Source: an uncultured Acidobacteriota bacterium
GTDB lineage: Bacteria; Acidobacteriota; Thermoanaerobaculia; Multivoradales; UBA5704
Reading direction: 5' to 3'
NCBI GenBank assembly: GCA_963770895.1
Contig: CAVYRF010000002.1
Span: 5,344,001-5,408,000 of the forward strand
DNA: 64,000 bases
In this document: positions 7,424-35,850 of the stretch, piece by piece
Layout of the letters: every line of letters starts with the position of its first letter
How positions within the stretch are numbered: position 1 is the stretch's first letter
Translations under genes and position numbers: made by a program
Notes under the pieces: model-generated
Told to the model about the DNA's origin: nothing
Database searches by the model: none
Seen by the model: the letters and a program-made list of their open reading frames with translations, nothing else

Positions 7424-7426
7424 ACC

Positions 7427-12932: not shown

Positions 12933-13394
12933 CTAGGGGCAACTCGGAAAGCCGGCGGTGTCATAGACCGGCATCGATGTCTGGTTCAAGGCATTCGAGT
13001 AGACCCGCCCCTTGCCGGTCTTCAGGTCAATGACCTCAAGCGTGTATGCGACGTTCGTGAGTCCCGCCGTGAAGACCCAATAAGCGTTGAAGGGCTCGAC
13101 GCAGGCGTCGATCACCTTCACGAACAGCTCGGGATCGTCCGCGTCGAAGAACCAGAACCAGCCCCCGCCGAGGACGGGGCTCTTGTCCGTGTGGAAGAGC
13201 GGCACCGCGTGGCCGCCGCCCGCCAGGCCGCCCCCGGCGTCGTAGTTGACCGCCACTTCGAAGCGGTCGCCGACACCCAGGCAGAGGGTGGTGTCGTTAG
13301 CCGTGCAGTTGTAGGACTGTTGGGTCTCGGCCGAGGAAGCCCTGGCGCCCGCCAGCACGAGGAAGGCGCCGAGGACGGCGATGCTCCGCTTCAT
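12933..13394 (-). CDS. secreted protein with one Thermoanaerobaculia-type FWFF repeat domain
   Basis: Signal peptide; LCL..RFEV..WFWFFD..PELFVKVIDAC..YWVF..LTNV.Y, paralogous to the domains in 40160-41440. Confidence 0.8.
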   Translation of the reverse strand: MKRSIAVLGAFLVLAGARASSAETQQSYNCTANDTTLCLGVGDRFEVAVNYDAGGGLAGGGHAVPLFHTDKSPVLGGGWFWFFDADDPELFVKVIDACVEPFNAYWVFTAGLTNVAYTLEVIDLKTGKGRVYSNALNQTSMPVYDTAGFPSCP

Positions 13395-13843
13395 GGTTCA
13401 CCCCCTTGCTTCATAGAGGACACGCGACAAACCGCTTTGTTGGGTCGGGCCTGCCGTCTAGTCTCGTCGCGCTCCCAGGCAGAGACGGTCGAAGGGTCGA
13501 GGCCGAACCGGCGAGCTAGCGCTTCCGCGGAGAGTCCCGCAGCCTGCCGCGCGGCTCTGACCCGCCCGCCGAAGGTTCCTGGCTCCGGCCGCGGGTCGTA
13601 GCCGAGAAAGGCGAGGATGCCGGGCAGGAAGCGCAGCCCAGGCGCGCCCCGCCCCGCCTCCCAACTCGCAAGGCTCGCCTGCGAGCAGCCGATCTCGTGG
13701 GCCGCGTGTCTCTGGCGGAGGCCGCGGTCAAGGCGCGCCCGCCTGAGATGCTCGCCAATGGTCCGGGGTGCCTCCGGGTAACCCTGCGGACTCGACTTCC
13801 GTCCTCGTAAGCGGACACGAACACTTATGCACGCGGCCCCAGG
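13391..13843 (-). other. start-less open frame encoding a tandem XRE HTH (putative alternative C-terminus of the 34291 recombinase)
   Basis: 151 codons including the stop, no internal stop: PGAACISVRVRLRGRK..GYPEAPRTIGEHLRRARLDRGLRQ..LASWEAG..FLGYDP..RAARQAAGLSAEALARRFGLDPSTVSAWE; TGA overlaps ATG of the next gene; absent from the ORF track. Confidence 0.8.
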
Positions 13844-13867
13844 GCTGCGTGCACCTTTTGTGATCCG
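13818..13867 (-). mobile_element. serine recombinase att-like site (core CA at 13840-13841)
   Basis: CGAACACTTATGCA CGCGGCCC CA GGGCTGCG TGCACCTTTTGTGATCCG aligns with 35789-35837. Confidence 0.8.
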
Positions 13868-13971
13868 CTTGCGGGGCAGGATTCTTCGCCCTGGCTATCC
13901 TCAGAACCGTCGCACCCTGGGCGAGCACCTCAAGTAGCCGAAGTCCCAGGGGAGCCGAGGCGGAGGCGCCG

Positions 13972-14265
13972 GTGCACTTGGTAAGGAGCAGGGGCCGACG
14001 CAGTAATCTCGTCGCTCGGCCCCGGTCGGCTTCGAGGAAGAAGAAAACATTCCGGCGGTGCTCCGGTTCGGCCTCGAAGCGAAGGCCGAAGACACGATCC
14101 GGTTCCACGCCGAGCTGGTGGAGCGTGCCGCTCTCCTGCACCTCGACCTTCCACCGGCGGGGTACGATGCCGGTCACGCGGAAGGGCCTTGGGCAGACTT
14201 CCTTCCGGCGCAAGCTCCTCGGATACCGGGGAACCTGGCGCCAGGGGCTTCACCGGACGCACGAA
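13972..14265 (+). pseudogene. replication-relaxation (Replic_Relax-like) relaxase remnant with internal 136-bp inversion
   Basis: Minus strand 14157-14022 gives EPDRVFGLRF..FFFLEADR; plus strand continues RGTMPV..TSFRRKLLGY..W. Confidence 0.65.
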
Positions 14266-14281
14266 GCATGCCCCTGCCGCC

Positions 14282-14316
14282 TACAATGGACTACAGCCAT
14301 GGTCCTTAACCATGGC
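14282..14316 (+). promoter_or_regulatory. putative -10 (TACAAT) and palindromic operator GCCATGGT-N5-ACCATGGC
   Basis: Perfect 8-bp inverted repeat at 14296-14316, 15 bp upstream of the LexA-like ATG. Confidence 0.5.
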
Positions 14317-14331
14317 CCTAAGACCAACCCT

Positions 14332-14984
14332 ATGGGCAGACAACGCACCTACCAATCTGAACAGGTCCTCGTCGCGCTTGAGCGCTACGCCATCCAGCAT
14401 GGCCGGGCGCGCCGACCATCGAGGAGTTCCGCCAGGCCCTCGGCGTCGGTTCGAGCCGCACGGTCCTGCGCTACCTTCAGGAGCTCGAGGATGGCGGCTT
14501 CATCCGGCGCGCGCCCGGTGCGCGTGGCATCCAAGTCCTGCGCCGCCCCTCCGGCGGGACGCAGACTCAGCCGGTGCCGGTCCTTGGCCGCGTGACCGCC
14601 GGCGCCTTGGACCTCGCCGAGCAGCACTACGACGGTTGGCTACAGCTCCCGGTCGAAGATCTCAAACCGAAGTCTGCCAAGTTCTTCCTCCTCAAGATCC
14701 ACGGCCGGTCTATGGATCAGGCAAAGGTCGGAGGGGAGCGGATCGAAGACGGGGACCTCGTGCTCGTGCGCCAGCAGACCGCGGCCGATCCTGGTGAGAT
14801 CGTCGTGGCGCATGTAGACGGCGAGGCAACGGTGAAGAAGCTGGCACGTCTGCCGGACTATTGGGTGCTGAAGCCGGAGTCCTCGCAATCTCACTACCGC
14901 CCCATCCTCGTTGGCCCCGGTTTCTCCATTCAGGGAGTCGTGACGAAGGTCATCAAGAAGGGATCTGAAGTATTCGACCTATAA
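14332..14984 (+). pseudogene. lexA: LexA-like S24 repressor, frameshifted by a 2-bp insertion near 14407-14412
   Basis: wHTH PTIEEFRQALGVGSSRTVLRYLQELE; VTAG cleavage site, GRSM Ser, TVKK Lys; 653 bp minus 2 = 217 codons. Confidence 0.8.
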
Positions 14985-15003
14985 GAGCAGGAGATTATCG
15001 ACC

Positions 15004-16092
15004 ATGGGCTACGAAATCGATTTTTTGAAGGTAGGCGATACGAAGAGTGGCGATTCGATCACGCTCCGTTTTGGCAACCTCCACGGTCCGCGCAACCAGC
15101 AGTCGGTAGTAGTCGTTGACGGAGGTTATGTAACTGACGGGGAAAGAGTCGTCGAGCACCTTGCGCGCTACTATGGCACAGACCAGATCGATATCCTAGT
15201 ATCGACTCATCCGGATGCCGACCATGTGGGCGGCTTGGAGACAGTCTTCGAAAGCTGTGGAGTTGGGCAGCTCTGGATGCACCTGCCGTGGACTCATACC
15301 ACGGACATGGCCCGCTTGTTTCAGAGCGGCCGCGTAACAGACATGAGCGTTCGCGAGGTCATGCGGCGGTCCCTCGAAGCAGCATGCGCCCTTGAAGCAG
15401 CTGCCAAAAGAGAAGGCGTACCGATCATCCAGCCCTTTACAGGAACGCAGGATGCAACTGGCTCGCTCGTCGTACTCGGTCCCACGCAAGAGTACTACCG
15501 GAGCCTGCTCCCAGAGTTTCGCTGTACCCCCGAGGCAAAGAGCGAAATCGAAAAGCTGCTGGAGCGTGCCATGCGAGCCGCTGCGAACCTCGCGGAACGG
15601 TGGAACTGGGAGACGTTGACCGACAGCGGCGACACGACCGCGGAGAACAATTCAAGCGTTGTCCTCTTGCTACGAGTCGATGGTCGCACCGCACTTCTGA
15701 CCTCGGATGCGGGCAAGCCTGCCCTGACCCAGGTGGTTGATCTCATGGAGGCGAACAACATCGACCCGAAGAACCTGAACTTTATCCAAGTGCCTCATCA
15801 CGGCAGTCGTCGCAACGTCGGCCCGACCTTGCTGAATCGGCTTGTAGGCCCCAAGCTGGCAGGGGACCAGTTGATGAAGCCGGCGTTCGTGTCCGTCGCA
15901 GAAAATGCTGACGACAAGCATCCCTCCAAGCGCGTCGTGAATGCCTTCCGGCGTCGAGGAGCCCACGTCTCCCGCCACAACGGTGGCCATTGGATTCGGC
16001 ATCAATTCAACGCGCCAGATAGATCAGATGCTGTGTCTCTTCCAGCCCTTCCTTTTTATGACGGGATAATTGAAGAAGACGGAGATGCCTAG
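15004..16092 (+). CDS. ComEC/Rec2-like MBL-fold metallo-hydrolase (soluble)
   Basis: FLKVG..GDSI, VDGG, THPDADH, NNSSVV, QVPHHGS, HPS motifs. Confidence 0.88.
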   Translation: MGYEIDFLKVGDTKSGDSITLRFGNLHGPRNQQSVVVVDGGYVTDGERVVEHLARYYGTDQIDILVSTHPDADHVGGLETVFESCGVGQLWMHLPWTHTTDMARLFQSGRVTDMSVREVMRRSLEAACALEAAAKREGVPIIQPFTGTQDATGSLVVLGPTQEYYRSLLPEFRCTPEAKSEIEKLLERAMRAAANLAERWNWETLTDSGDTTAENNSSVVLLLRVDGRTALLTSDAGKPALTQVVDLMEANNIDPKNLNFIQVPHHGSRRNVGPTLLNRLVGPKLAGDQLMKPAFVSVAENADDKHPSKRVVNAFRRRGAHVSRHNGGHWIRHQFNAPDRSDAVSLPALPFYDGIIEEDGDA

Positions 16093-16813
16093 TCATTTCG
16101 GAGGAGCCGAGGTGTTTGACGCCTACACGCGCCGCGCACGACTCCAACCGGCCCTACTCGCCATTCTACCTATCGGTATTGCCGTCCTCGTCTGGTTTCC
16201 AAACAGTCTCACCGAATGGGGAGTTTTCGCGAGCGTCCTTACCTCGGCCGGCGGCATGGCACTCTTGGTTCGCATCGCGAGAATCAGAGGCAAGGGAATC
16301 GAGCCGTCTCTCTACGAGAGGTGGGGCGGCAAGCCTACGACAGTCGCCCTTCGCCATCGTGACACAAAGAACGCCGTCCTGCTTGCTCGGCGTCACGCGC
16401 AGTTGCAGCAGATCGCGAAAGATATCCACTTGCCAACTCCGGAAGAGGAGACTGCCGACCCCGCTGCTGCGGATGCAGCCTATGACGCCTCAGTGGCAGT
16501 GCTCATTGAGCGGACTCGGGACCGTAAGCGCTTCCGATTACTCTTTGACGAGAACTGTAACTACGGCTTTTGGCGGAACCTCCTTGGCCTCCGTCCGTTT
16601 GGCATCCCCTCCTCCCTTCTAGGAACAGCCGGTATCGCCTTCCTGATCCATCGGCACAATTTCGCCTTGGAGTTCAAACCTCTCGTGGCTCTCGGTATCG
16701 ACCTGCTTTTCCTCATCGGCTGGCTCCTCCTGGTGAGGGATGCTACCGTTAGGATCGCGGCTTCGAGCTATAGCGACCGCCTCCTGGCCGCCTGCGAAGA
16801 TCTGGCATCGTAG
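16085..16813 (+). CDS. 4-TM membrane protein with central soluble domain
   Basis: YTRRARLQPALLAILP, WGGKPTT, LLFDENCNYGFWRNLLGL; overlaps the upstream stop. Confidence 0.8.
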   Translation: MPSHFGGAEVFDAYTRRARLQPALLAILPIGIAVLVWFPNSLTEWGVFASVLTSAGGMALLVRIARIRGKGIEPSLYERWGGKPTTVALRHRDTKNAVLLARRHAQLQQIAKDIHLPTPEEETADPAAADAAYDASVAVLIERTRDRKRFRLLFDENCNYGFWRNLLGLRPFGIPSSLLGTAGIAFLIHRHNFALEFKPLVALGIDLLFLIGWLLLVRDATVRIAASSYSDRLLAACEDLAS

Positions 16814-16832
16814 ATACGAGGTACTCTTCGCT

Positions 16833-17852
16833 ATGCCACTGCTCCATTTCTTAAATGTTAGCGAAGGCGACTGCTCTATCATCCAGCACGGGTCCGGACA
16901 TGTGACGGTTATCGATGTCTGCAACGCTCGCGCTGAGACAGCCGGGGAGCGCATCGCGTCCGGCGTCCTGATGCGGTTAGCGGAAAAGGGCATTTACGGC
17001 AATTTCAACCAGAAAAAGTATCCCGTAAATCCTATCTCCTACATGAACGACCGCGGAATCTCGTCCGTTTTCCGGCTTGTCGTAACTCATCCAGACATGG
17101 ATCACATCGATGGGATCAGTGATTTCTTCGCTGAATTCAAGCCGACGAACTTCTATGACACCGACAACACCGTCGAGAAAGATGAGGGCTGGGAAGACAC
17201 AAACTACCGAGAGGAAGACTGGCTCTTCTATAGGGGCCTGCGTGAAGGCACCGCTGACGTTAGCTCCAAGCGCTTGGTTTTGTATCCTCCTGGCCGGGGA
17301 CCCTGCCGCACCGAGGACTGGAATGGCAAGCCGGGCGGCGATGGGATTCGAATCCTTGCGCCTTCCAGGCAACTCGCCAGGCTGGGGAGGGAGACCGGCG
17401 ACTGCAACGACTGCTCATATGTTATCCTCTACCGAGCGTATGGATTCAAGATCCTCTTTGGGGGAGACTCGCACGATGGCACCTGGCAGTATATTCTGAG
17501 GCACTATCGTTCTTGGGTCACTGATGTAGATCTCCTAATCGCCCCCCACCATGGCCGCGACTCCGGCAGGTCGTACGACTTCCTCGACGTCATAAATCCG
17601 CGTCTGACCTTCTTCGGCAATGCCCGTAGCGAACATCTGGCTTACGATGCCTGGAACAACAGGGAGCTGCCGTTTATCACCAATAACCAGGCCGGCTCTA
17701 TGATTGTACGCATCGATCGCGACGCAATGCACCTATTCGTCACCCATGAACCATATGCCAAGGCGTACAACGCGGACACCTATCTTGATGAGCAGCTTCA
17801 GGCGTACTATTGCGGCGTGATAATAGACATCAACGAATCGCCTCCTCCTTGA
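16833..17852 (+). CDS. second ComEC-like MBL-fold metallo-hydrolase
   Basis: HFLNVSEGDC, THPDMDH, NDCSYV, GGD, APHHG. Confidence 0.88.
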   Translation: MPLLHFLNVSEGDCSIIQHGSGHVTVIDVCNARAETAGERIASGVLMRLAEKGIYGNFNQKKYPVNPISYMNDRGISSVFRLVVTHPDMDHIDGISDFFAEFKPTNFYDTDNTVEKDEGWEDTNYREEDWLFYRGLREGTADVSSKRLVLYPPGRGPCRTEDWNGKPGGDGIRILAPSRQLARLGRETGDCNDCSYVILYRAYGFKILFGGDSHDGTWQYILRHYRSWVTDVDLLIAPHHGRDSGRSYDFLDVINPRLTFFGNARSEHLAYDAWNNRELPFITNNQAGSMIVRIDRDAMHLFVTHEPYAKAYNADTYLDEQLQAYYCGVIIDINESPPP

Positions 17853-17885
17853 CCCTTCATTTTTGAGGCGTAGAATAGAAGGGCA

Positions 17886-18155
17886 ATGAAGACTTTGACC
17901 TACCGCATCCATCTCACCCCCGAACCCGAAGGGGGATATACCGTGACCGTCCCCGCCCTCCAGGGCTGCATTACCTGGGGCCGCGACTACGAGCACGCCC
18001 AAAAGATGGCCCATGAAGCCATAGAGCTCTACCTCTCTTCCCTGGCCGACGACGGGGAACCCATTCCCGAGGACACCCTCTCTGCCGATGCTTTCGTCCA
18101 GATCCAAGCACCGGCAGCATGGAGCACCTCAGGAGCCTCACCGCGAAGCAAATAG
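17886..18155 (+). CDS. hicB: HicB family antitoxin
   Basis: GGYTVTVPALQGCITWG...EAIELYL..GEPIP. Confidence 0.9.
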   Translation: MKTLTYRIHLTPEPEGGYTVTVPALQGCITWGRDYEHAQKMAHEAIELYLSSLADDGEPIPEDTLSADAFVQIQAPAAWSTSGASPRSK

Positions 18156-18346
18156 TCAAGGCGCTGAAGCAGGCGGGCTTCGTGGAGCACCGCCAGCACC
18201 GCACAAGCCACCTCCTCCTCGTCCATCCCGAGCGCAAGCTACGTACCATAGTTCCCATGCATCACGGCGACTTGCCCCGCGGCACCGTGCGCGCCATCAT
18301 CCGACAGAGCGGGATGACCGAGGAGGAGTTCAAAGCGCTGCTCTAG
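18119..18346 (+). CDS. hicA: HicA family toxin
   Basis: KALKQAGF..SHLLL..VPMHHGDLPRGTVRAIIRQSG. Confidence 0.88.
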   Translation: MEHLRSLTAKQIVKALKQAGFVEHRQHRTSHLLLVHPERKLRTIVPMHHGDLPRGTVRAIIRQSGMTEEEFKALL

Positions 18347-18350
18347 CAGC

Positions 18351-19949
18351 TCATGCCGCCTCGCCCTCCTCATCTGCTTCTTGTCCTGTTGTATCTGCTT
18401 CCATCAGTTCCCTAATCTTTTCAAGCTTCTTCTCGGAGCTTTCATCTGCGAAAAAGGTTCGAACGTCGTGGAGAAAAGCCCGCAGCTCGACACTCGTTGC
18501 TGTGGCTGACCAGCGGCGAAACGGTTTGGCCGCGTCAATCTTGAGTTCCCGGTCTCGCAGTCTGGGGTTCGAACCTAGAATACCGAGGATCATTCGCTTC
18601 TCGCTCGGGGAACCAACGCGGAACCGCGAAGCCGCTTCTTTGTTGAATTGGATGAGCAGGCGCTGGGGTTCGAACCGTTCGCGGGTCTCGGTAAGCTTCT
18701 GCATCTCTTGCGTCACCTGGATGCGTTCTCGGGTGAGGCTTTGGCGCTCTTCGAGAAATTCGGCGTCGTCCAGCAGCTCGCGGATGCGGAGCTTGTTCAG
18801 GTTCGCGAGCTGGCGATCGAGCGATGCGGCCCGCACGTCAAGTGCATGCCGCTGCTTCGCGAGGAGTTCCTGGTCCTCGGCCATGACGCCGGCCAGGCGG
18901 TCCATCTCGAAGTGATGGAACTTCTCGGGAAGCGTGGCTTCCTCCAAGAACGCCGCAAGCTGCGCGTCGAGGCGTTCCGCCGTGACCGACCGTTGGGTAC
19001 AATGGTAGTCGAGGCGGCGCCAGGAGCAGTGGTAGTAGATGTAGCGGGAGCCGAAGCGGTTCCGCTTGTGCTCCGCGGTCACGAGGAAGCCGCACTCGTC
19101 GCAACGTATGAGGCCCGTATAGGCGAACTCATGCGTCTTGCGCCGCGGCTTCCCCGGACGCCCGAGTAGCTCCTGCACGCGCTCGAACTCGGAGAGCGTC
19201 ACCATGGCCTGATGCTTGCCGGGGTGGCTCTCGCCCTCCCATTCGATGACACCCGCGTAGAAGGGGTTCTTCAGGATCTTGTAGATCGCGCTCTTGGTGA
19301 ACGGGGCGCCTCCGATCCGCTTCCGTGTTCTCGTCGTAAGGCCCCATTCTTTGCCCGCCATCTCCCAAACGCGGCGGGGCGTCGCCTCGCCCGAGAGCAC
19401 GAGGCGCCACATCCGCTCGATCGCATAGAAGCGCTCGGGGTCGGGGATGATGCCGCCGCTCTCCCGGTCGTTCAGGTAGCCGGCGGGCGCGAAGTTCGGC
19501 AGCCAGCCGCGTTTCACTTTGGCGCGCATTCCCCGGCGGACGTTCTCCGAGAGCGAGTCCACGTAATACTTTGAGTACCCGAAAATGATCGAGAGCATGA
19601 ACTTGCCCTGCGAGTTGTTCTCGAAGGAGAAGGTGGCGAAGCGCAGGTCCTTCAGCTTCCCGGTATCGAGGTGGTAGATGATCCGGCCGCCGTCCACGGA
19701 GTTCCTCGCCAGGCGGTCCGGGTGCCAGGCGATCACGCCTTCCGCCTTGCCGCGCTCGATTTCGCGGAGCATCGCCTCGAAGACCGGCCGGCCGGGAGCC
19801 TTGGCGCTCTGCGATTCTTCGAAGACGCGCACTATGGTCGCGCCCCAGGCAGCGGCATGCCGTTCCATCTCCGCGCGTTGCGATTCGATGGAGAGCACCT
19901 GGCGATCCTCGGACTCGCTTGATTTGCGGCAGTAGAGAAAATAGTTCAT
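18351..19949 (-). CDS. large serine recombinase (resolvase + recombinase + Zn ribbon)
   Basis: MNYFLYCRKSS catalytic Ser, DRLARN, NPFYAG, CDECG..YYHC. Confidence 0.95.
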   Translation of the reverse strand: MNYFLYCRKSSESEDRQVLSIESQRAEMERHAAAWGATIVRVFEESQSAKAPGRPVFEAMLREIERGKAEGVIAWHPDRLARNSVDGGRIIYHLDTGKLKDLRFATFSFENNSQGKFMLSIIFGYSKYYVDSLSENVRRGMRAKVKRGWLPNFAPAGYLNDRESGGIIPDPERFYAIERMWRLVLSGEATPRRVWEMAGKEWGLTTRTRKRIGGAPFTKSAIYKILKNPFYAGVIEWEGESHPGKHQAMVTLSEFERVQELLGRPGKPRRKTHEFAYTGLIRCDECGFLVTAEHKRNRFGSRYIYYHCSWRRLDYHCTQRSVTAERLDAQLAAFLEEATLPEKFHHFEMDRLAGVMAEDQELLAKQRHALDVRAASLDRQLANLNKLRIRELLDDAEFLEERQSLTRERIQVTQEMQKLTETRERFEPQRLLIQFNKEAASRFRVGSPSEKRMILGILGSNPRLRDRELKIDAAKPFRRWSATATSVELRAFLHDVRTFFADESSEKKLEKIRELMEADTTGQEADEEGEAA

Positions 19950-20137
19950 TGGTGCAGTGGGCCTTCCGAGCCCGAGGCCACGCATTCCGCTTCGCGCTTC
20001 GCCGAGCGCGCGAGGAGGAGATAGAGCGCGTCAAGGCGGGCAATGTGTTCGCGCGTCTCATCCGCCCCGAGTTCTTCCTTGAACTCCTCGCGCCAGATCT
20101 CCTGGAACTTGCAAATGTCGTCGGCCGTGATGCGCAC
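19946..20137 (-). CDS. small helical protein coupled to the recombinase (possible accessory/RDF)
   Basis: 63 aa, ATGA overlap with the recombinase start; KFQEIWREEFKEEL. Confidence 0.65.
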   Translation of the reverse strand: MRITADDICKFQEIWREEFKEELGADETREHIARLDALYLLLARSAKREAECVASGSEGPLHQ

Positions 20138-20525
20138 GGTAACGACGGTACGCTGCGAGGGGGAGCCGCGCTAGGCGGCAGAGGGAGCGTGCTTCAAGAC
20201 TTGGAAGAGCGATAGGGTGGGAAGTCTTCAATCTCCCTCTTGGATGGTAGGCAAAAATGGCGCGGTCGTCAAAAAGACGCGTCGTCGCTTTTCCATAGTT
20301 CCTGGCACAGTACGCCTTAAATTGCCTTCACCGTGAAGACGGCGCGAACCGCCGCCTTTCTCTTCACCGTGCACACCGCTAATCTGAATCCCGCCATGAA
20401 CAACACCTCGCCACGATCGCGCATCGCAACACGTATCGCCGAAATCCGCGCCGGCCCGCGCGGGGATACTTAAGCATCCGCTCCACAAAATAAAACCTCT
20501 GTCGCCAAACAACATCCTCCAACAT

Positions 20526-21029
20526 ATGTCCCACGAGACTCCGACCCGCCCGACCCGCATCATCGCCCTCGACCCCACGACTAAGGGTTTCGGCTATGCC
20601 ATTCTCGATCTGCCGCTTCGCCTCATCGCCTGGGGCCTCGCCCACATCTCGGGCGAGAAGCGCTCCGGCGCCGTGGCCCGCTTCGAGGCGCTTCTCGACC
20701 AATTCCGGCCGGATGCCGTGGTACTCGAAGACACCACCGCTCCGGGCTCGCGGCGCTACCCGCGCATGCGAGACCTCCTCGAAACCCTCGCAAAGACGGC
20801 GCGCGAGCGCGGCGTCGCGGTATACACCGTCGCGCGGCTCGCGGTCATTGCCTGCTTCTCCTCAAAGGACGAACGCGCCACGAAGGCCAAGATCGCGAAG
20901 ACGCTTGCGGTCGCGTACCCGGAGCTTGCGGAGAAGGTACCGAAGCAGCGCAAGACCTACCAGAGCGAGGACGAACGCATCTCGATCTTTGATGCCGTCT
21001 CCTTAGCGGTGACATTCGCGAGTACATAG
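20526..21029 (+). CDS. RuvC/RNase H-fold Holliday-junction-resolvase-like nuclease
   Basis: IIALDPTTKGFGYAI, PDAVVLE, TK..IA, FDAVSLA. Confidence 0.7.
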   Translation: MSHETPTRPTRIIALDPTTKGFGYAILDLPLRLIAWGLAHISGEKRSGAVARFEALLDQFRPDAVVLEDTTAPGSRRYPRMRDLLETLAKTARERGVAVYTVARLAVIACFSSKDERATKAKIAKTLAVAYPELAEKVPKQRKTYQSEDERISIFDAVSLAVTFAST

Positions 21030-21057
21030 CGGTTCGGCTGCCAATTCCTTCTCACGC

Positions 21058-21090
21058 AAGACGGCTTCCGGGGCCGTCTTTTGCGTTTTG
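21058..21090 (+). terminator. intrinsic terminator
   Basis: AAGACGGC-loop-GCCGTCTT followed by TTGCGTTTTG. Confidence 0.65.
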
Positions 21091-21145
21091 CCTCCCGCCC
21101 GTACCCTTATCGCAGTTCCTTTATCTCCATGGAAAGGAGGATGCG

Positions 21146-22093
21146 ATGGGCCAGAGCTTCGTCCCGTTTGTAGAGGTGAAGCGCGCCGTGAGTATCGAGG
21201 CGCTTCTCGAACACTACGGCCTCTTTGCGGCCCTCACCGCCAAGGGTCAGAACCTCGTGGGCGCGTGTCCCTTCTGCAAGGGGCCATCCGCGCGCCAATT
21301 CCAGGTGAACCCGGACAAGAACGCCTGGTACTGCTTCGGCTGCAAGCAGGGCGGGAACGTCCTCGACTTCGTGGCCCGCAGGGAGCGGGTCGGCCTCCGC
21401 GGCGCAGCCATCAAGCTCGACGCCTGGTTCACTCTCGGGCTGGCGACCGCGGCGGCGGCGCCCACCCTGGCCGCCGCTTCGCCGCCACCGTCGCACGCAG
21501 CTCGCGATTCTGCGCCGCCGACCATCGCGGCATGCCCGCCGGCAGAGAACCCGCCCTTGACGTTCACGCTGAAGACCCTCGACCGCAATCATGCCAGCCT
21601 CGCGGTCCTCGGGCTCGCGCCCGAGACCATGCTGCACTTCGGGGCCGGGTACTGCACGAAGGGACTCCTGAAGGGCAGGCTCGCGATCCCGATCCACAAC
21701 GGCGGCGGCCAGCTCGTCGCCTACGCCGGCGTGGCCCTTGAGGCTGACACCATGCCGCGCCACCTCTTCCCGCCCAAGTTCAATTTCGGGCTTGAGGTCT
21801 TCAACCTTTACCGGCTCGCTGCGGTCGCGGAGCCCGTGGGCCGGCTCTATATCGCGCCGGACATTGAAGGCGCTCTGCGGCTCTTCGACGCCGGCACCCG
21901 GCCGGCGATCGGTCTCTTCGACGGGTCGCTCTCTTCGGCGCAGGAGGAGGCGATTGCCGGCGAACTCGGTCGCTTTGAAGGGCTCGTCCTCGTGGGCGAG
22001 GGTTTCGCAGACCGCACGGTCGCTCGTCTCGCACGGCATGCGTCCGTCTCCTGGGTCACGGACCCCTCCTCCGCGATCCACGGCGACGAGTAG
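21146..22093 (+). CDS. CHC2 zinc-finger DnaG-like primase with degenerate Toprim
   Basis: CPFC..WYCFGCKQGGNVLDFV; GRLAIPIHN..LVAYAG. Confidence 0.8.
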   Translation: MGQSFVPFVEVKRAVSIEALLEHYGLFAALTAKGQNLVGACPFCKGPSARQFQVNPDKNAWYCFGCKQGGNVLDFVARRERVGLRGAAIKLDAWFTLGLATAAAAPTLAAASPPPSHAARDSAPPTIAACPPAENPPLTFTLKTLDRNHASLAVLGLAPETMLHFGAGYCTKGLLKGRLAIPIHNGGGQLVAYAGVALEADTMPRHLFPPKFNFGLEVFNLYRLAAVAEPVGRLYIAPDIEGALRLFDAGTRPAIGLFDGSLSSAQEEAIAGELGRFEGLVLVGEGFADRTVARLARHASVSWVTDPSSAIHGDE

Positions 22094-22210
22094 CGGACAC
22101 CGGCGCCATGTTCCTTGGGGAAGTAGTCATTCCATTGCCCCACGGCACCACCGCTGGGGCTTTTCTCTTCCCGCCCGGTCTCCTGTCCTTGACATGCCGC
22201 CCTCCCGACC

Positions 22211-22343
22211 CGGCTATGGAAGCTGGCGGGGTATGGAAAGCTCCGGCCGCCGCCCGCACGCCCTGGACCTTCCCACACCCCTCGGAAATCCTGGGCGCCC
22301 GCCCCGACCTGCCACCCAGGATTACACGCAGCTCCCACAGCCG
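22211..22343. other. structured noncoding element (nested TGGAA/TTCCCAC inverted repeats), candidate origin or ncRNA
   Basis: CGGCTATGGAAGCTG pairs 13/15 with CAGCTCCCACAGCCG; inner GGGGTATGGAAAG / CTTCCCACACCCC; ATCCTGGG / CCCAGGAT. Confidence 0.5.
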
Positions 22344-22496
22344 CGGCGACGGCGAGGATGCATAACCCATGGGTGGAGAGAGAAGCGCGTCTTCGATCGC
22401 TGGTAGGTAGCCGCCGAGCGTGAACGACATAGTGGACGGAAAGGTGACCCGACCGCGCAACGGTGCGACGGTGAAGGTGTGGCCGCGGGCCTGCGG

Positions 22497-25142: not shown

Positions 25143-25143
25143 C

Positions 25144-25725
25144 CTATTTCCTCCTGTCCGCACCGACGAGGTGCACGAGGAGCCTTCGCGCGGTGTCCCA
25201 CTGCTCCCGGACTCTTCTGCGGGACAATCCAAGCTCTTCCCCGATCGCCCGCTCGCTCAGCCCATCGAAGACCTTGAGTTTCACGATCTCGGCAAGCTCC
25301 GGGTCTTGCTCCTCGACACCCGCCATGACTTCAAAGACAAATAGGGTGGCCTCCGCGTCTTCTGGGTCGGCGGGATGCGCCACCTGCTCCAGGGACAGCT
25401 CTTGTTGATCGCCGCCGCGCTTGATGGCATCGGCCCGGCGGAGCGTGCTGATTGCGAGGTGTCTTATGGCTGCATGCGCATAGGCGAAGAACTTCTTCCG
25501 ATTCGCGAGGTCCGGGAAGCGGTCGGCCAGATCAATGTAGAGCTCGTTCAGGAGAGCGGTCGGGGTGAGTGAACCGGCGGGGAGCCTCCCGAGGTGGTAC
25601 TGGCACATGCGTTTCAGGGTCGAATAGAGGAGACCAATCAGCTCATCAAGACCCCCTCGGTCACCCTCTCCGATCCGCCGGAGAAGGTCGGTGATGGTCC
25701 GCGCATCCTCGGGCATAAGCTGCAC
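25144..25725 (-). CDS. ECF-type sigma factor (TIGR02999-like, kinase-associated)
   Basis: ITDLL..GD, LTPTALLNELY, KRGG, C-terminal HTH; 1 bp from the kinase. Confidence 0.88.
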   Translation of the reverse strand: MQLMPEDARTITDLLRRIGEGDRGGLDELIGLLYSTLKRMCQYHLGRLPAGSLTPTALLNELYIDLADRFPDLANRKKFFAYAHAAIRHLAISTLRRADAIKRGGDQQELSLEQVAHPADPEDAEATLFVFEVMAGVEEQDPELAEIVKLKVFDGLSERAIGEELGLSRRRVREQWDTARRLLVHLVGADRRK

Positions 25726-26035
25726 TCCCTCAGAGATTTGGCGCTTTCGCGTTCGGGCATCTTACGCTGGCACCTTCATGTCTTCAAGCGCATTTCCGCC
25801 CTCCGATGGTCCAGCGACCCGGCTATCCCACCTGAACGGTGTGGACCAAAAGAACCCTGTTCCGCGCCTTCTATAGAGGAGGGGAACACGCAGCGACTCG
25901 GATTGGTCAGCACAGGCGCGATCGGCATTGCGCCATTTCGGAAGAGGAAGCATACTTTATACATTCCTGCCACAGGATCTGGTTCTGTCTGTCGCCGGCA
26001 GTCGCCGGCCGGACCATCAGAAGAGGACTAATCAC

Positions 26036-30000: not shown

Positions 30001-30456
30001 GTCACCTTCAGCCTCTTCCCGGCGCCCGGAGGAATATTCACGACCGGCCCCGGAGGCGGTGGCATCGGCGACACGACTTATGCCGTGCAGGTGGTCCAGC
30101 CCTATGCCGGGTTCAGCACCTCAAGCATTAACTTCGCGGTGTACGATCCGCCGCCAAGCTTGAGCGGCGTGAATGCCGTCCTAAACAACACCAGCCAGCC
30201 GTGCCGAGCCAACATGACCTGCGAGCTCGCGGTCTCCGGGACGGGCTTCGTCTTCACCACGAACTACCTTGTGGTCGAGTTGAGTCAGTCGCTCACGAGA
30301 GACTCCAACCCCTCGACGGCCCTTCCCTGGTCGAATCTCACAGTGGGTACGTTCTCCGCTCCCTCCGCCGGCACGTACACCCTGCGGGTGACGAACACGA
30401 ATCAGCAGAACGGCCAGCCTGCGAGCGCCACCTCCACGTTTACGGTGCAGCCTTAA
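27040..30456 (+). CDS. large secreted protein: putative lysozyme-like N-domain + PKD + Ig (He_PIG) repeats + IPT/TIG
   Basis: Signal peptide; repeated GSLPxGL..G.ISGTPT Ig units; WGET...GIGAWQLD motif. Confidence 0.8.
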   Translation: MRIYRAVLLLGALTGLCATNADAYEFGSIPLVDVENAANAISTMPKYSCPGLSSAHNGKLIALMLTPTWGETTLGGVNSPSPMTLSRADNGPALYPPGDENVEPYRRAFWHTGIGAWQLDDINLGSDLGFERFASAAAAMEVATTMAAAYCGTKGNDNPYYNAFLNWIDSCEDKTAKTPNTLICQRLFNAIYNSNGLPFVTPDPSVDEYGGSDMRSCSLSGGGGTFACLYVNPATAQGATWWVRESPDGTPPLAKPFYVYRQSHGPYEWRYWMAGTDTGFTSDIAVARPYGTWSKCGLCWMTNGQLTPVVGPPSKYCPINFSPCAGLSPQALCDLKAGAGACTTPPPPSTLSVALTAAPNSGPAPLNGVILQANVTGTPNETINYTFYCNRPDQGTNITQPWDYKQDAISRTQMRAPGGTCDYLYKTPGTYTAKVIAEQGNGAAQSQVTITVSGGTTSGCFPLVLAANNPAGGAPPVASPPGSDPCAVGEYQPGTQIQLTATPASSWTVGSWVGTANDPSTADTNSLVMPASAHSVSVNYVESAPSPLTITTTSLPDGFVGQLYMTTLAASGGTGTGYHWSIQSGSLPAGLGGNGQTGVISGTPTQGGIGSNFTVGVTDSGGDSASRRFSLYVEAAPGLAIYSSAAGSFAFFVGNPYTRANSITYTAEGGQAPYTWSATGLPPGLQIDSAGGFLYGTPTAAGSYAVTIKAEDSTGKSGSLPVVLSVTKTAITISGSGGQTPASPPAGQVGKSYLTFFQAGGGSNTGFQWSVQGSLPPGLVSENGPGCPANCALEVTGTPTMAGTYTFTVAVADSLGDRASQPATIVVNSGTPPSITTTTFPRSTIGSPYTASLTATGGTPGYQWAFVGQSPDPGIVLSPSGVLSGTPTLTNDCPTGATDGPGIWVGSGYPTRYFSVQVTDAAGQSSTTTLCLVSYYPLPHLTGANPPFVIVDGQDHTITVDGTNLRNTSMLELGTGLAPTTYVSPSAVTFSLFPAPGGIFTTGPGGGGIGDTTYAVQVVQPYAGFSTSSINFAVYDPPPSLSGVNAVLNNTSQPCRANMTCELAVSGTGFVFTTNYLVVELSQSLTRDSNPSTALPWSNLTVGTFSAPSAGTYTLRVTNTNQQNGQPASATSTFTVQP

Positions 30457-30492
30457 AGGAGAGGTAGGAAATGATTGCCAGGGAGAGCTGCC

Positions 30493-31176
30493 ATGTTCAA
30501 GGCAAAACCCGAGGTCGAAGGCCACTGGCACTCCCTGATCGAGGGCTTTGCCACTTCATCACTGGACTTCTATGAGCTGGCGAAAGCTGGCATCGCTAGG
30601 CGCGAGATCCCGGACCTCAAGATCTCACAGGTGGAGTGGAAGGAAAGCGGTGTGGGCTCCGGCAAGCGCGTCTATCTGCGCGTCAGCCGCGAGGGTCTGA
30701 ACTTCGACATCTGCGCCGCCCCCTTCGGCACCGGGTACTTCTTCTCCTGGTGGCTCGCAAAGATCAAGCGCGTCTTCCTGGATTTCCTCTTTATCATCGT
30801 CATGCTGGCTGGGGCCTTCTTCATGTTTCGGGCGTTCACGAGCGACAATCCTGGGAGCGAGGGAGGCCATGGTTGCATAGCGGTCGTGGGTGGCCCCCTG
30901 CTCCTCCTCGGCCTCCTCATGGGCCTCGGATTCCTTGTCCGCTATGGCGAGACCGGAAGTGAGCCCACCGTGCTCTCGATGCCGATCACGGGCTTCTTCT
31001 ACGGCTTCATCTTCCGCCCGCAGACATATTTCAACGACGACACCGCCCTCATGTTCCGGGAGTCCATCCATCACGCGGTCACGGAGGCCATCGACCAAGT
31101 GACTTCCGCCCAAGGCGTGCGCGGGCTCTCGGAAGAGGCGCGTAAGATAACCTTCCAGCCGGGCGGCAAGAGGTGA
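30493..31176 (+). CDS. 2-TM membrane protein associated with the coupling ATPase
   Basis: FDICAAPFGTGYFFSWW, two TMs, TYF..DTALMF. Confidence 0.75.
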   Translation: MFKAKPEVEGHWHSLIEGFATSSLDFYELAKAGIARREIPDLKISQVEWKESGVGSGKRVYLRVSREGLNFDICAAPFGTGYFFSWWLAKIKRVFLDFLFIIVMLAGAFFMFRAFTSDNPGSEGGHGCIAVVGGPLLLLGLLMGLGFLVRYGETGSEPTVLSMPITGFFYGFIFRPQTYFNDDTALMFRESIHHAVTEAIDQVTSAQGVRGLSEEARKITFQPGGKR

Positions 31177-31196
31177 TCGCCGCCGCGAAATAGCGG

Positions 31197-34190
31197 ATGA
31201 CCCGCCCCACCCTGCCAGAGCACCTGACCGAGCAGTTCTACGCCTGGGAACTGCGCGGTCGGGGCTGGCAGGAGTTTTCCTCTGCGGTCGCACTCGAACC
31301 GCCCTACGTTCCTTTCCCCGGATACTTCCTCCCGCCGATCAAGGACGACGGCCACCGGCCGGGTCTCCTTGGCCGCCTCCTCGCGCCGGCCCTGCCGGCA
31401 GAAGAACCGCTGGAGCTTGAGGAGCCCGAACCGGAAGCGTTCGAGAGCGAGGAGTCGCTTGTCGAGTGCGTGGTCTCGCTGCCGCGGGACGAAGCGGTCA
31501 AAGCGGAGAGCGCCGAGCGCTTCCTCCTATCGCTCTCCGGCGCCGAGCTGCCGCTTGCCTTCGAGGTGGTGGGCCTGCACGATCAGCTCCGCGTGCAGCT
31601 CGTCTCCCGAGCGCCGGATGCGGGACTCCTCGCAAACCAACTCCGGGCCTTCTTCCCCGAGGTCTCGATCGCGGCTGAGCCGGAGGGGCTGCGACAGGTA
31701 TGGAAGAAGAACGAGAGCGAGACCATCCTTGTCCACTTCGGCCTGGCGCGCGAGTTCATGCTGCCCCTCTCTTCTTTCCGGTCCCTCGACCCCGATCCGC
31801 TCCTGCCGCTTTTCGGGGCGCTCGCCGAGCTTGAAGCCGGCGAAGCCGGCCTCGTGCAAGTCCTCTTTGAGCGAGTCCGCGAGCGGTGGGCCGAAAGCGT
31901 CATGCGCGCCGTCGTGACCGGGGGCGGCGAACCCTTCTTCGCCGACTATCCAGAACTCACGAAGGCTGCGCGGGAGAAAGTCTCCCGGCCCCTGTACGCC
32001 GTCTGCCTGCGGATAGCAGCGAAGAGCAGCGATGCGACCGGCGCTTGGCGGATCGTGCGCGATCTTGCCGGAGCACTGACCCATTTCGGCGCTCCTGGCG
32101 GCAACGAGCTTCTCCCGCTAGCCTCCGAGGAGGGTGCCGACGCAACCGAGCAAATCTTCGAGAGGGTGAGCCGCCGGCCGGGCATGATCGTAGGAAGCGA
32201 TGAGCTGGCGGCCCTCGCGCACCTCCCGAGCGCCTCAGTGCGGGTGCCGAAATTCCTCCGGGAGATACGGCGCTCGAAAGCGGCGCCCGCTCTCTCCCAA
32301 GGCGCGGGGATTCTTCTTGGCGAGAACCTTCATCACGGCAAGACCCTTGCCGTGCGGCTGCCCAATGATCTCCGTCTCCGGCATCTCCATGTGATCGGCG
32401 CCTCGGGCTCCGGCAAGTCCACTCTTCTCATCGATCTCATCATGCAGGACATCGAAGAGGGCCGGGGCGTCGGCGTCCTCGACCCTCACGGCGATCTCGT
32501 GGATGAGATCGCAGGCCGCATCCAGAAGGCGCGACTTCAGGACGCCATCCTCTTCGACCCGGCGGACACTGCCTACCCGGTTGCCTGGAACATCCTCGAA
32601 GCCCACAGCGAGCTGGAGCGCACGCTCCTTGCCTCGGACCTCGTTGGTATCTTCCGCCGCTTCTCGACTTCCTGGGGCGATCAGATGACCTCGGTCTTGG
32701 GGAACGCGGTCTTGGTGCTCCTGGAGAATCCCGGCTCGACCCTGCTTGACCTGCGCGAGTTCCTCGTGGATCGGCAGACCCGCGAGCGCTTGCTTGCCGC
32801 GGTCGATGATCCATACCTCCTCTCGTACTTCCGACACGAGTTCGCTCTCGCGGCCGGGAAGAGCGTGGGCGCGATCCTCACCCGCCTTGATGGCTTCCTG
32901 CGCTCAAAGACCGTGCGGCAGATTGTTGGCGCGAGGGAGAGCCGGCTCGACTTGCGCTCGGTCGTGGACCGCGGACAGATATTCCTGGCCCGGCTCTCCG
33001 AGGGCGCGATCGGCGAAGAGAACGCTGGGCTCTTGGGCTCCCTCCTCGTCTCCAAGTTCCACCAGATCACGATGAGCCGGCAGGAGGTGAAGCGGGAGGA
33101 ACGCCGTCCCTTCTTCCTCTACGCCGACGAATGCCAGGAGTTCGCAACGCCCTCCATGGCGCTCCTCCTTTCGGGAGCGAGGAAGTACGGCCTGGGGCTC
33201 GTCCTCGCCCACCAAGACCTGCGCCAGCTCGAAGCGAAGGCCCCGGAGGTTGCCTCCGCTCTCCTCGGAAACGCCGGAACGCGCATCGCCTTCCGCGTCG
33301 GCGACCGGGATGCGAAGGCGCTCTCTGAGGGCCTATCCTTCTTCGGACCCGGTGACCTCATGAGTCTCAAGGTAGGGGAAGCCATCGCCCGGATCGACAA
33401 CTCCCAAGGGGACTGCAACCTCAAGACGCAGCTCTTGCCGGCGGTCGCGGCAGAGACCGCCACGGAGCGGCACGACGCGATCACCGCTCACTCGCGGGAG
33501 CACTACGCCGTGCGGAGAGAGGAGCGGCAGAGAGCGGCAGAGCCGGCGCCAGAGGTGGCACGGCCGGCACCTCCGCTGGCGGAAAGGACGTCACCGCCGA
33601 CCCCGGCCCCACCAGCACCTGCCCCGCCGCAACCGGCACCGGCTCGCGAGCGGCGCCCATCGCCGGTAGAGCCCGCACCACTCGGCCGCGGTGGGCCGGA
33701 GCATCAGTATCTCCAAGAACTCGTGAAGCGATGGGCGGAGGCCAAGCGTTACCGCGCGACGGTCGAGGAGCCCTTGCCCTCGGGCGGCCGGGTGGACGTG
33801 GCCCTGCGGCGCGAGGGGCACGCGGTCGCTTGCGAGATATCGGTCACCACGACCGCCGAGCACGAGGTCGGCAACGTCCTGAAGTGCCTTGGGGCGGGCT
33901 TCGATGATGTGGTCCTCCTCTCGCTGCATCGCGGCACGCTCGGCAAGGTGCGGCAGGCGGTAGAAGCCAGGGTCGAGGGGAAGGACCGGGGGCATCTCCA
34001 CTTCATGAGCCCGGAGGAGTTCTTCACGTTCCTTGACGCTCCGGCGCCGGCCGCCACCGAGACAACGGTAGGCGGGTACAAGGTGAAGGTGAAGTACCGG
34101 GCGGCCGAGGGTGAGGCAGCTTCGAGGAAGAGCAAGGCGGTTTCGGAGATACTCCTCAAGAGCGTGAAGCGGATGAAAAAGGAGGAATAG
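31197..34190 (+). CDS. VirD4/TraD-like coupling ATPase with C-terminal PD-(D/E)xK-like domain
   Basis: HLHVIGASGSGKST, DPHGDL, YADECQ, ARKYGL, AHQ; Pro-rich linker; GRVDVAL..ACEISVTT. Confidence 0.88.
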   Translation: MTRPTLPEHLTEQFYAWELRGRGWQEFSSAVALEPPYVPFPGYFLPPIKDDGHRPGLLGRLLAPALPAEEPLELEEPEPEAFESEESLVECVVSLPRDEAVKAESAERFLLSLSGAELPLAFEVVGLHDQLRVQLVSRAPDAGLLANQLRAFFPEVSIAAEPEGLRQVWKKNESETILVHFGLAREFMLPLSSFRSLDPDPLLPLFGALAELEAGEAGLVQVLFERVRERWAESVMRAVVTGGGEPFFADYPELTKAAREKVSRPLYAVCLRIAAKSSDATGAWRIVRDLAGALTHFGAPGGNELLPLASEEGADATEQIFERVSRRPGMIVGSDELAALAHLPSASVRVPKFLREIRRSKAAPALSQGAGILLGENLHHGKTLAVRLPNDLRLRHLHVIGASGSGKSTLLIDLIMQDIEEGRGVGVLDPHGDLVDEIAGRIQKARLQDAILFDPADTAYPVAWNILEAHSELERTLLASDLVGIFRRFSTSWGDQMTSVLGNAVLVLLENPGSTLLDLREFLVDRQTRERLLAAVDDPYLLSYFRHEFALAAGKSVGAILTRLDGFLRSKTVRQIVGARESRLDLRSVVDRGQIFLARLSEGAIGEENAGLLGSLLVSKFHQITMSRQEVKREERRPFFLYADECQEFATPSMALLLSGARKYGLGLVLAHQDLRQLEAKAPEVASALLGNAGTRIAFRVGDRDAKALSEGLSFFGPGDLMSLKVGEAIARIDNSQGDCNLKTQLLPAVAAETATERHDAITAHSREHYAVRREERQRAAEPAPEVARPAPPLAERTSPPTPAPPAPAPPQPAPARERRPSPVEPAPLGRGGPEHQYLQELVKRWAEAKRYRATVEEPLPSGGRVDVALRREGHAVACEISVTTTAEHEVGNVLKCLGAGFDDVVLLSLHRGTLGKVRQAVEARVEGKDRGHLHFMSPEEFFTFLDAPAPAATETTVGGYKVKVKYRAAEGEAASRKSKAVSEILLKSVKRMKKEE

Positions 34191-34290
34191 AGAGGGTCGG
34201 AGCCCGCGACCCGAGCCGAGGAAATATCCCAAGATGTGATATTTTTGGCTGGTTGAGGAAGACGATAAATCCGCAGGAAAGCGAGTGGTT

Positions 34291-35850
34291 ATGACCAAGG
34301 CAAAGCAAGCCGACGAACCGGCCTCTAAGCGCGTCGCGATCTGGATAAGGGTCTCGACCGAGGACCAGGCAAGGGGCGAGAGTCCCGAGCACCACGAGCA
34401 CCGCGCCCGCGGCTACGCCGAGATCAAGGGCTGGCAGGTCGTGACCTTGTATAACCTCGCCGGCGTCTCGGGCAAAGCCGTCATGGCCCACCCCGAAGCC
34501 CGCCGCATGATGGAGGACGTGAAGGCCGGCCGCATCTCGGGCCTCATCTTCTCCAAGCTCGCGCGCCTGGCCCGCAACACCAAGGAACTCCTCGACTTCG
34601 CCGAGTTCTTCAAGACCGAGGGCGCCGACCTCATCTCCCTTCAGGAATCTATCGACACCTCGACCCCCTCCGGCCGCTTCTTCTACACCATGATCGCCGG
34701 CATGGCCGCCTGGGAGCGAGAGGAGATCGCCGAGCGCGTCTCGGCCTCGGTCCCGATCCGGGCGAAGCTCGGCAAACCCTTGGGCGGTGCGGCTCCCTTC
34801 GGCTACCGCTGGCACGAGAAGCGGCTCGTACCCGACCCCGAGGAAGCGCCCGTCCGCCGCCTCATCTATGAGCTGTACATTGAGCACGGCCGGTTCCTCA
34901 CGGTCGCGCGACTCCTGAACGAGCGGGGATACCGCACGCGAAACGGCGGCAAGTTCTCGCACACGACCGTCGAGCGCCTGGTCCGTGACCCCACTGCCAA
35001 AGGCACCCGCCGCGCGAACTACACAAAGTCTCTCGGCGACGGCAAGAAGTGGGTCCTGAAGCCCGAGCACGAGTGGGTGGTCTCCGAGGTGGAGGCCATC
35101 GTTCCCGAGGAAATCTGGAGCGCGGCGAACGCCCTACTCACGGAGAAGCGAGCGGGAAAGCCCCGCATCGCCCGCCGGCCGGTGCAGCTCTTCTCCGGCC
35201 TCACCTTCTGCCACTGCGGGACCCGGATGTATGTCGGCAACACCCCGAAGTATTTCTGTAAGTCTTGCCGGAACAAGGTGCCGCAGGCGGACCTTGAGCG
35301 CGTCTTCCGGGAGCAACTGCGCCAGTTCGCGCTCTCCCCGGAGGAGGTTGCTTCCGCTCTCCATGAGGCCGATCGGGAGGTGGAGGCCAAGGCAGACCTC
35401 CTCCAGGCACTGGTGCGCGAGGATGCCCGCCTCGCGGACGAGGCCGAGAAGGTCTACCGCCTCTACCTCGCGGGCGAACTCGACCCCAAGGGCTTCGGGG
35501 CGCGCAACCGCCCGCTGGCGGCGCGGCGCGAGGAACTCGAAGCCGAGATCCCCCGGCTCCAAGGTGAGATCGACTTCCTCAAAATCCAGCATCTCTCCCA
35601 GGAAGAGGTCGTCACCGGAGCCCACGACCTCTACGAGCGCTGGGACGACCTATCCCAGGAAGACCGCCGCGGCGTCATCCAGGCCATCGTGGAGCGGGTG
35701 AGCGTTGGCAAAGACGAGATCGAGATCACCCTTGCCTGCCTTCCGAGGACCGCGGAACACCCGCCGCCCCCGCCTCCTCTGAAGATTGCGAACACTTATG
35801 CATACAACCCTGGGGATTCGTGCACCTTCTTGATCCGGTTCCGAGCCTGA
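34291..35850 (+). CDS. large serine recombinase with an att site in its 3' end
   Basis: WIRVSTEDQ, SKLARLARN, APFGY, CHCG..YFCKSC. Confidence 0.95.
   Translation: MTKAKQADEPASKRVAIWIRVSTEDQARGESPEHHEHRARGYAEIKGWQVVTLYNLAGVSGKAVMAHPEARRMMEDVKAGRISGLIFSKLARLARNTKELLDFAEFFKTEGADLISLQESIDTSTPSGRFFYTMIAGMAAWEREEIAERVSASVPIRAKLGKPLGGAAPFGYRWHEKRLVPDPEEAPVRRLIYELYIEHGRFLTVARLLNERGYRTRNGGKFSHTTVERLVRDPTAKGTRRANYTKSLGDGKKWVLKPEHEWVVSEVEAIVPEEIWSAANALLTEKRAGKPRIARRPVQLFSGLTFCHCGTRMYVGNTPKYFCKSCRNKVPQADLERVFREQLRQFALSPEEVASALHEADREVEAKADLLQALVREDARLADEAEKVYRLYLAGELDPKGFGARNRPLAARREELEAEIPRLQGEIDFLKIQHLSQEEVVTGAHDLYERWDDLSQEDRRGVIQAIVERVSVGKDEIEITLACLPRTAEHPPPPPPLKIANTYAYNPGDSCTFLIRFRA
35789..35837 (+). 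mobile_element. serine recombinase att-like site (core TG at 35811-35812)
   Basis: CGAACACTTATGCA TACAACCC TG GGGATTCG TGCACCTTCTTGATCCG; partner at 13818-13867. Confidence 0.8.

Follow-up and report, generated by a model that had tools for sequence, protein, structure and literature searches.

How does a gene for a large serine recombinase (LSR) come to face, across 22 kb of cargo, the DNA for a C-terminal end that it lacks? This question is raised by a stretch of 64,000 nucleotides, hereafter the window (assembly GCA_963770895.1, contig CAVYRF010000002.1, forward-strand positions 5,344,001 to 5,408,000), from an uncultured Acidobacteriota bacterium whose genome, here G000, is an 8.16-Mb assembly of three contigs. 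A first-pass annotation, made from the sequence alone, had proposed a recombinase whose own reaction adds or removes a helix-turn-helix (HTH) region and inverts the cargo. The analysis presented here points, with high confidence, to a family mechanism in which the attP site lies inside the recombinase open reading frame (ORF) and integration splits off the C-terminal HTH tail. The inversion in the window is best read as a one-off by-product, and a programmed reversible switch is not supported. The combination of this family mechanism with a single inversion in the window is the best explanation overall, and we regard it as somewhat probable. The features at the two ends of the segment are the following (aa, amino acids):

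12933 to 13394, minus strand: gene of a 153-aa protein whose N-terminus resembles a signal peptide and which has no Pfam family
13391 to 13843, minus strand: tail_W, a start-less frame with two XRE-type HTH domains, corresponding to the C-terminal end of the full-length recombinase
13818 to 13867, plus strand: site L, of attL type read in reverse, with the tail-side arm, the core CA at 13840-41 and the arm Y_L
13842 to 13937, plus strand: relic of another element's tail (GLRAPFVIRLRGRILRPGYPQNRRTLGEHLK, then a stop), which faces tail_W head to head and forms the right half of the partner site
13842 to 35810, plus strand: the 22-kb segment, a complete element body from the tail position to the recombinase
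34285 to 35850, plus strand: rec_W, an intact LSR gene of 521 aa in its truncated attR form
35789 to 35837, plus strand: site R, of attR type, with the recombinase-side arm, the core TG at 35811-12 and the arm Y_R

Judged by its domains, rec_W is an LSR. It matches the Resolvase (PF00239, 6.4e-31) and Recombinase (PF07508, 2.3e-21) models of Pfam, and S24, which lies inside the motif IWIRVSTEDQ of the catalytic domain, is invariant in alignment A1. The Recombinase domain and four cysteines that are also invariant in A1 (C309, C311, C325, and C328) lie C-terminal to the catalytic domain; the Zn_ribbon_recom match is weak (1.6e-4 in P0104, a fused homologue of 656 aa). The last 12 residues of rec_W (GDSCTFLIRFRA) derive from the partner site. 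The tail_W frame, which has matches to HTH_3 (2.7e-19) and HTH_31 (8.3e-19), contains no ORF of at least 60 aa started by ATG, GTG, or TTG between 13391 and 13843, and a PDB sequence search with the tail returned generic small HTH proteins only. Both pieces are collinear with P0104: residues 14-486 of rec_W align with its residues 4-477 at 60% identity, and residues 10-128 of tail_W align with its residues 506-625 (E 2e-32). Of the window's arm type there is a single full recombinase in the genome, alongside three tails, and the window has one of each. The stop of tail_W overlaps the ATG of the gene downstream (ATGA), whose protein starts with MKRSIAVLGAFLVLAGA. The right-hand site within the 3' end of the recombinase, the start-less double-HTH frame at the left-hand site and the ATGA coupling to a gene for a secreted-type protein had all been claimed in the first-pass annotation, and each of them holds.

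The two sites are built alike. On the plus strand, L reads CGAACACTTATGCA-CGCGGCCC-CA-GGGCTGCG-TGCACCTTTTGTGATCCG and R reads CGAACACTTATGCA-TACAACCC-TG-GGGATTCG-TGCACCTTCTTGATCCG, so that both have the order X arm, 8 nt, core, 8 nt, and Y arm. In the left halves 18 of 26 positions agree, and in the right halves, ungapped, 17 of 26 (the mean of random pairs is 7.3); the exact stretches that the sites share measure 14 nt and 10 nt. Five copies of the 14-nt X arm exist in the 8.16-Mb genome and none of its reversed control, and the Y-arm pattern has one match within the window against 0.04 expected. The cores, CA in L and TG in R, are reverse complements of each other, which bears out the earlier claim of paired sites with reciprocal core dinucleotides. 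The claim that the sites are inverted stands in one respect only: their polarity is opposite by virtue of the core dinucleotide alone, whereas the arms are in direct order on the plus strand. The sequence to the left of R, CTGAAGATTG, is also found at the recombinase-side site of a second copy of the element in the same genome (copy 2), and the sequence to the left of L, TAAGCGGACA, is also found at the genome's two other tail-side sites. These observations support the reading, already suggested in the first-pass annotation, that L and R are hybrid sites of attL and attR type, derived from a symmetric attP and a partner site that is also symmetric. No additional att-like palindrome was found in a palindrome scan of positions 1-40 kb of the window. 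In both the recombinase frame and the tail frame the core T occupies the third codon position, and exchange at the core therefore keeps the frame and yields an in-frame fusion, as had been predicted and as real fused homologues also attest.

Such joined recombinase-tail proteins are real, conserved genes. Homologues with a C-terminal HTH tail had been named beforehand as the finding whose absence would speak against the proposal, and the search recovered them. Six of the 120 best listed homologues, which together span 489-699 aa, are fused proteins of 636-656 aa with HTH_3 or HTH_31 domains; another homologue, P0003, is 95% identical and is encoded on a metagenome contig of 61.8 kb. In species-representative genomes, 558 of 598 candidate stretches were confirmed as relatives; the 80 best-matching of these (57-75% identity), which span many phyla, make up the genome loci considered here, and nine of them are fused, the start coordinates of the recombinase and tail matches sharing a frame in all nine. 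One of 27 metagenome loci is fused as well. In each of five small genomes that were checked, the fusion is one open frame of 612-688 aa, and it is the sole recombinase and the sole tail of the family there. Intact fused genes sit in large chromosomal contigs in other genomes. No fused gene was found in 401 genomes of the phylum, a survey in which three candidates per genome were scored and tails were under-counted; G152 and G049, which are marked as unpublished, support none of the claims made here. Searches of plasmid and phage collections with P0104 recovered nothing at 1e-50. Recombinases 60-63% identical to rec_W also occur in archaeal contigs of metagenome-assembled genomes (L078 and L079) and in Patescibacteria contigs (L091, L122, L126, and L142); this spread is unusually wide for so conserved an enzyme, and the assignments rest on the binning as given.

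The fused loci also contain a site where the sequence of the window would place it. In nine of ten fused loci, the best palindrome of the linker-coding DNA is centred on CA, with arms GGCAACGC..CA..GCGTTGCC, and its background fraction is at most 0.033 in six of the ten. Unfused homologues keep the recombinase-side arm and their C-termini diverge directly after the arm or core; one C-terminus reads on into comM, and several homologues have the same host target. From the other side, similarity among tails breaks off immediately before the conserved LPFC..L(R/K)G linker in 18 of the 19 tails examined. Fused ORFs thus carry the palindrome in the linker and split copies are broken there, which is the logic of a site placed within coding sequence known from SSV-type integrases, and it follows that the family keeps attP in its own ORF and that integration removes the HTH tail.

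The full-length gene encodes about 650 aa: first the recombinase body, then a linker, and finally two XRE-type HTH domains, with the palindromic attP in the linker-coding DNA. Integration would cut this gene at the central dinucleotide; the recombinase would retain all catalytic and DNA-binding domains and gain a short arbitrary end, the HTH tail would end up at the opposite end of the element, deprived of a start codon, and excision would rejoin the two. A tail left without a start codon would exist as protein only in the attP state. Its role may be that of a regulator, a site helper or a directionality domain. A more speculative extension, which we consider possible and rather doubtful, is that the double-HTH tail acts, in a family spread over many phyla, as a built-in sensor of state and direction: only the full-length enzyme, made from the excised or attP form, would integrate or repress the element, and self-removal of the tail would set the direction, as disruption of the gene does in the archaeal suicidal integrases; with attP and a relic site on one molecule, as in the window, the outcome would be a self-editing inversion latch.

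The layout of other copies shows that ordinary integration is the norm. Among 26 recombinase-tail pairs on the same contig, 25 have the tail upstream of the recombinase, on the same strand and at the opposite end of an element of 10-146 kb, and the window is the only inverted pair. The 25 canonical pairs are copy 2 and the C1 element of G000, one pair in G266, a relative in the same family with the same layout, and 22 pairs in 21 of 38 further genomes. Tails were found in 30 of these 38, the 22 same-strand pairs being mostly 19-49 kb apart; one pair is adjacent and none is clearly inverted. Copy 2 (C2:4620628-4642645) measures 22,004 bp between cores and has its attL and tail on the plus strand, with a recombinase shrunk to residues 412-513 and followed by attR. 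The C1 element is 51 kb long and differs in arm type; reconstruction of its attP gives a clean palindrome. One locus of another genome, G401:C4, looked like the window, with a tail on the minus strand and a recombinase on the plus strand 25 kb later; a remnant of that tail's own recombinase lies directly upstream of it, so this tail and this recombinase come from different elements. Since the inverted layout is unique to the window, a cargo-inverting switch is not a property of the family. The earlier proposal that the enzyme's own reaction adds or removes a domain and inverts the cargo is accordingly retained for the tail, which would be gained and lost through excision and integration, and not for the inversion. 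Same-strand arrays of four to five tails, 1.4-10 kb apart and upstream of a single recombinase, were seen in G437:C41, G410:C4, and G409:C57, and suggest repeated insertion next to resident tails followed by decay.

The partner site in the window is something other than a plain host attB. Positions 13842-13937 on the plus strand, the opening 96 nt of the segment, code for the beginning of another element's tail, closed by a stop, which makes L a junction at which two tails meet head to head. A relic of this type also stands after an intact palindrome at C1:2002590-2002660 and is present at two other C2 sites; in G401 it follows a recombinase gene and is the partner of that gene's attR. A Y-type arm is the true recombinase-side arm of another G401 enzyme, and at the attR of the C1 element the recombinase is joined to a tail relic of yet another, third type. 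These relics at partner sites indicate that elements insert next to resident tails and that their targets look like the attP of relatives. The genome has at least 13 att-like sites with three or more arm types. More att-like junctions of mixed arm types are located at C1:1999612-1999700, C2:3490674, C2:3492502, C1:125303, and C1:68146, and one mixed junction pairs two tail-side arms with diverging tails.

The segment and the island in which it lies have these further features:

4594 to 4652, plus strand: left copy of a 59-nt direct repeat, a second-type arm followed by TG, at the left island edge
18351 to 19985, minus strand: second LSR in the segment (Resolvase 1.2e-21, Zn_ribbon_recom, Recombinase)
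31197 to 34190, plus strand: type IV coupling-protein-like ATPase, cargo (TrwB_AAD_bind 1.3e-14)
37036 to 37095, plus strand: right copy of the direct repeat, followed by TG, at the right island edge

Gene order was compared by ORF-level blastp. The order and orientations of the segment are those of two canonical G401 elements, namely the tail position, the second LSR (minus), a homologue of 20400-21029 (plus), a kinase (minus), an Ig-like protein (plus), a homologue of 30475-31176 (plus), the coupling protein (plus), and the recombinase (plus), and this match identifies the segment as a whole element body. Homologues of the second LSR stand at the same place in the G401 elements, and coupling-protein copies in copy 2, the C1 element, and G401 are 82-94% identical. 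The segment lies within a low-GC island at about 4.6-37.1 kb, where the GC content falls from about 0.70 to 0.55-0.68, and its edge repeats form a matched pair, since each is followed by TG.

With these parts, a tentative history can be put together for the window, one that needs fewer events than its rivals and to which we give somewhat less than an even chance: a composite 32-kb island would have arrived, bounded by the matched arm-TG repeats at 4651 and 37094 and carrying the intact fused gene plus, 22 kb away and in inverted polarity, the relic site of a related element. The enzyme would then have recombined its attP with this attB-like relic on the same molecule and inverted the body once. 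The segment ends have cores of opposite polarity, which could not be produced by insertion of a circle, and the window has no long inverted repeats able to drive a homologous inversion. An LSR cleaves at the central dinucleotide and alone drives attP x attB recombination one way, the reverse reaction needing a directionality factor, and the sequences are consistent with this scheme. For that reason the assembled state would be an end state and not one position of a working switch.

Several points weigh against this account. No read or contig shows the flipped state or the junctions of the present one; among shallow Logan contigs of four soil runs, compared over 4001-24000, none bridges L in either form, so that these contigs favour neither orientation. 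No directionality factor was identified, and a length of 59 nt is large for repeats at LSR junctions. At least four related palindromes or relics occur in the genome, the partner site among them, so that Y_L and Y_R need not share one source site. In the C1 element, moreover, the counterpart of the block 18017-21029 (compared with C1:88608-95584) is inverted relative to the kinase-to-recombinase block, as it is not in the two G401 elements, and this opposite orientation means that other rearrangements have occurred in the family.

That C1 block is also the starting point of the alternative that survives best, although it is unlikely: an ordinary integration followed by an unrelated inversion, with breakpoints near 22.1-22.5 kb and left of 11.35 kb. 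Such an inversion would agree with the inverted 18.0-21.0 kb block of the C1 element and with a weak 21-nt inverted repeat at 11370 and 22456, and would give an element of about 22.6 kb, near the 22.0 kb of copy 2. However, the two canonical G401 elements have the block order and orientation of the window, which makes a breakpoint near 22 kb superfluous; the repeat, one of 15 such pairs, is complementary at only 81% of its 21 nt, and the exact reciprocity of the cores would be left as a coincidence.

Improbable, too, is a history in which two elements inserted head to head in related relic sites, the left one then losing its recombinase and the right one its tail by deletion. Relic sites are indeed multi-copy, tail arrays and decayed junctions are common (G437, G410, G409, G401, and site 1), and G401:C4 gives an example of a tail and a recombinase from different elements in this very arrangement. 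This history needs at least two insertions and at least two deletions, though, and the window contains no second recombinase or tail remnant of its own type; the segment is, on the contrary, a complete body with the relic exactly at the tail position.

A programmed reversible 22-kb switch, in which the enzyme and a directionality factor would toggle both the HTH tail and the orientation of the cargo, is very unlikely. The precisely reciprocal half-sites and the in-frame fusion, the intact state of both recombinase and tail, and the translational coupling of the tail to the downstream gene would all suit it. Against it, the inverted-site layout, which a programmed invertase should share with its relatives, is found in none of the 25 other same-contig pairs, and no directionality factor was found. 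Tails are intact in ordinary integrated copies too (49 of 57 are without a stop among the tail matches listed), so that intactness of the tail does not point to a switch. In addition, L and R are of the hybrid attL and attR types, which an LSR alone does not recombine (PMC3783163). An assembly artefact that mis-set the orientation of the segment is hardly credible: no contig of the soil runs bridges L, but the exact stretches of 14 and 10 nt in L and R are too short to confuse a three-contig assembly, and an independent metagenome contig reproduces another odd junction of it, 12750/14022.

Excision between direct repeats was also considered and rejected. The flank-to-flank join would put a minus-strand ORF, 35650-36057, in frame with the tail; this ORF has no Pfam family and is arginine-rich and junk-like, and the event would need an off-centre crossover, while the attP sites of the family are symmetric about the central dinucleotide. 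A contig of run X4 that resembled an empty site, with the joint 4647->13837, is explained by the paralogous site C2:3492502.

Other genes of the island and its surroundings were recorded as well. The minus strand at 36227-37097 carries a toxin-antitoxin-like pair, made up of genes for a HepT-like RNase (36227-36568) and an MNT-type nucleotidyltransferase, and the nucleotidyltransferase frame continues upstream, in frame, into a 35-codon second-type tail relic whose end coincides with the island edge. At 11350-12752 lies a 1.4-kb unit that encodes an AAA_14/DUF4143 ATPase; it recurs, in opposite orientation and 99.6% identical, at C2:3487864-3489267. Beside the C2 copy there is a 567-bp copy of the tail-L junction region, 93.7% identical, whose junction has a GCTCGG-type microhomology and is reproduced by a metagenome contig. 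The island ORFs 5267-7423 (718 aa) and 7427-10771 (1114 aa), both on the plus strand, have no Pfam family. Farther to the right, 45745-63999 on the plus strand is a non-ribosomal peptide synthetase frame of at least 6085 aa, which is open at the window end and whose modules are 65-78% DNA-identical to well over a hundred places of the genome.

LSRs are major tools of genome engineering, and the control of their direction is under active study. A natural family in which the enzyme's reaction edits the enzyme's own C-terminus would represent a new control principle, and, being large, it would offer a ready set of orthogonal enzyme-site pairs in which attP can be read from the gene. The mechanism would also explain the highly variable C-termini of proteins annotated as “recombinase family proteins” and the orphan start-less double-HTH frames that occur in arrays.

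In the literature searched, with supplementary site tables (e.g. PMC10083194) outside its scope, the family mechanism seems undescribed for serine recombinases. The serine integrases Bxb1, phiC31, and SPbeta SprA have the same domain set and, as described in part in PMC3783163 and PMC6511857, imperfect palindromic sites of about 50 bp with a polarity-setting central dinucleotide; they form similar hybrid attL and attR products, and an inverted site order gives inversion. Unlike these enzymes, the family described here has attP in its own ORF, followed by a double XRE-HTH, and its partner sites resemble the attP of relatives. Invertases of the Hin and Gin type are serine recombinases that act on a segment between sites of opposite polarity. 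They differ from the present family in being small enzymes that use two like sites and an enhancer in a conserved layout.

In the integration-dependent immunity of mycobacteriophage BPs, the gene concerned is the repressor, the lost piece is a degradation tag and a tyrosine integrase does the cutting. There, too, attP lies in the 3' end of a gene and integration alters the C-terminus of its protein (PMC4557955), whereas the gene of the present family is the recombinase itself, which loses two HTH domains. Engineered fusions of integrases with recombination directionality factors (RDFs) likewise show that a C-terminal addition alters the action of a serine integrase (PMC5737554); those fusions are synthetic, while in this family it is the attP state that has the addition, and an RDF would be counter-productive in that state. 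The “suicidal” tyrosine integrases of SSV type, which PMC7253208 calls “so far restricted to archaea”, also have attP in the integrase ORF, integration splits their gene, hybrid genes are possible and one of them causes genomic inversions. In these enzymes both halves are inactive after the split, whereas the family of the window is a serine recombinase family, mostly bacterial, whose catalytic body remains whole. By analogy, archaeal SSV-type integrases and integration-dependent phage immunity appear to be the closest counterparts of an enzyme that would carry its own attP and part with its tail on integration.

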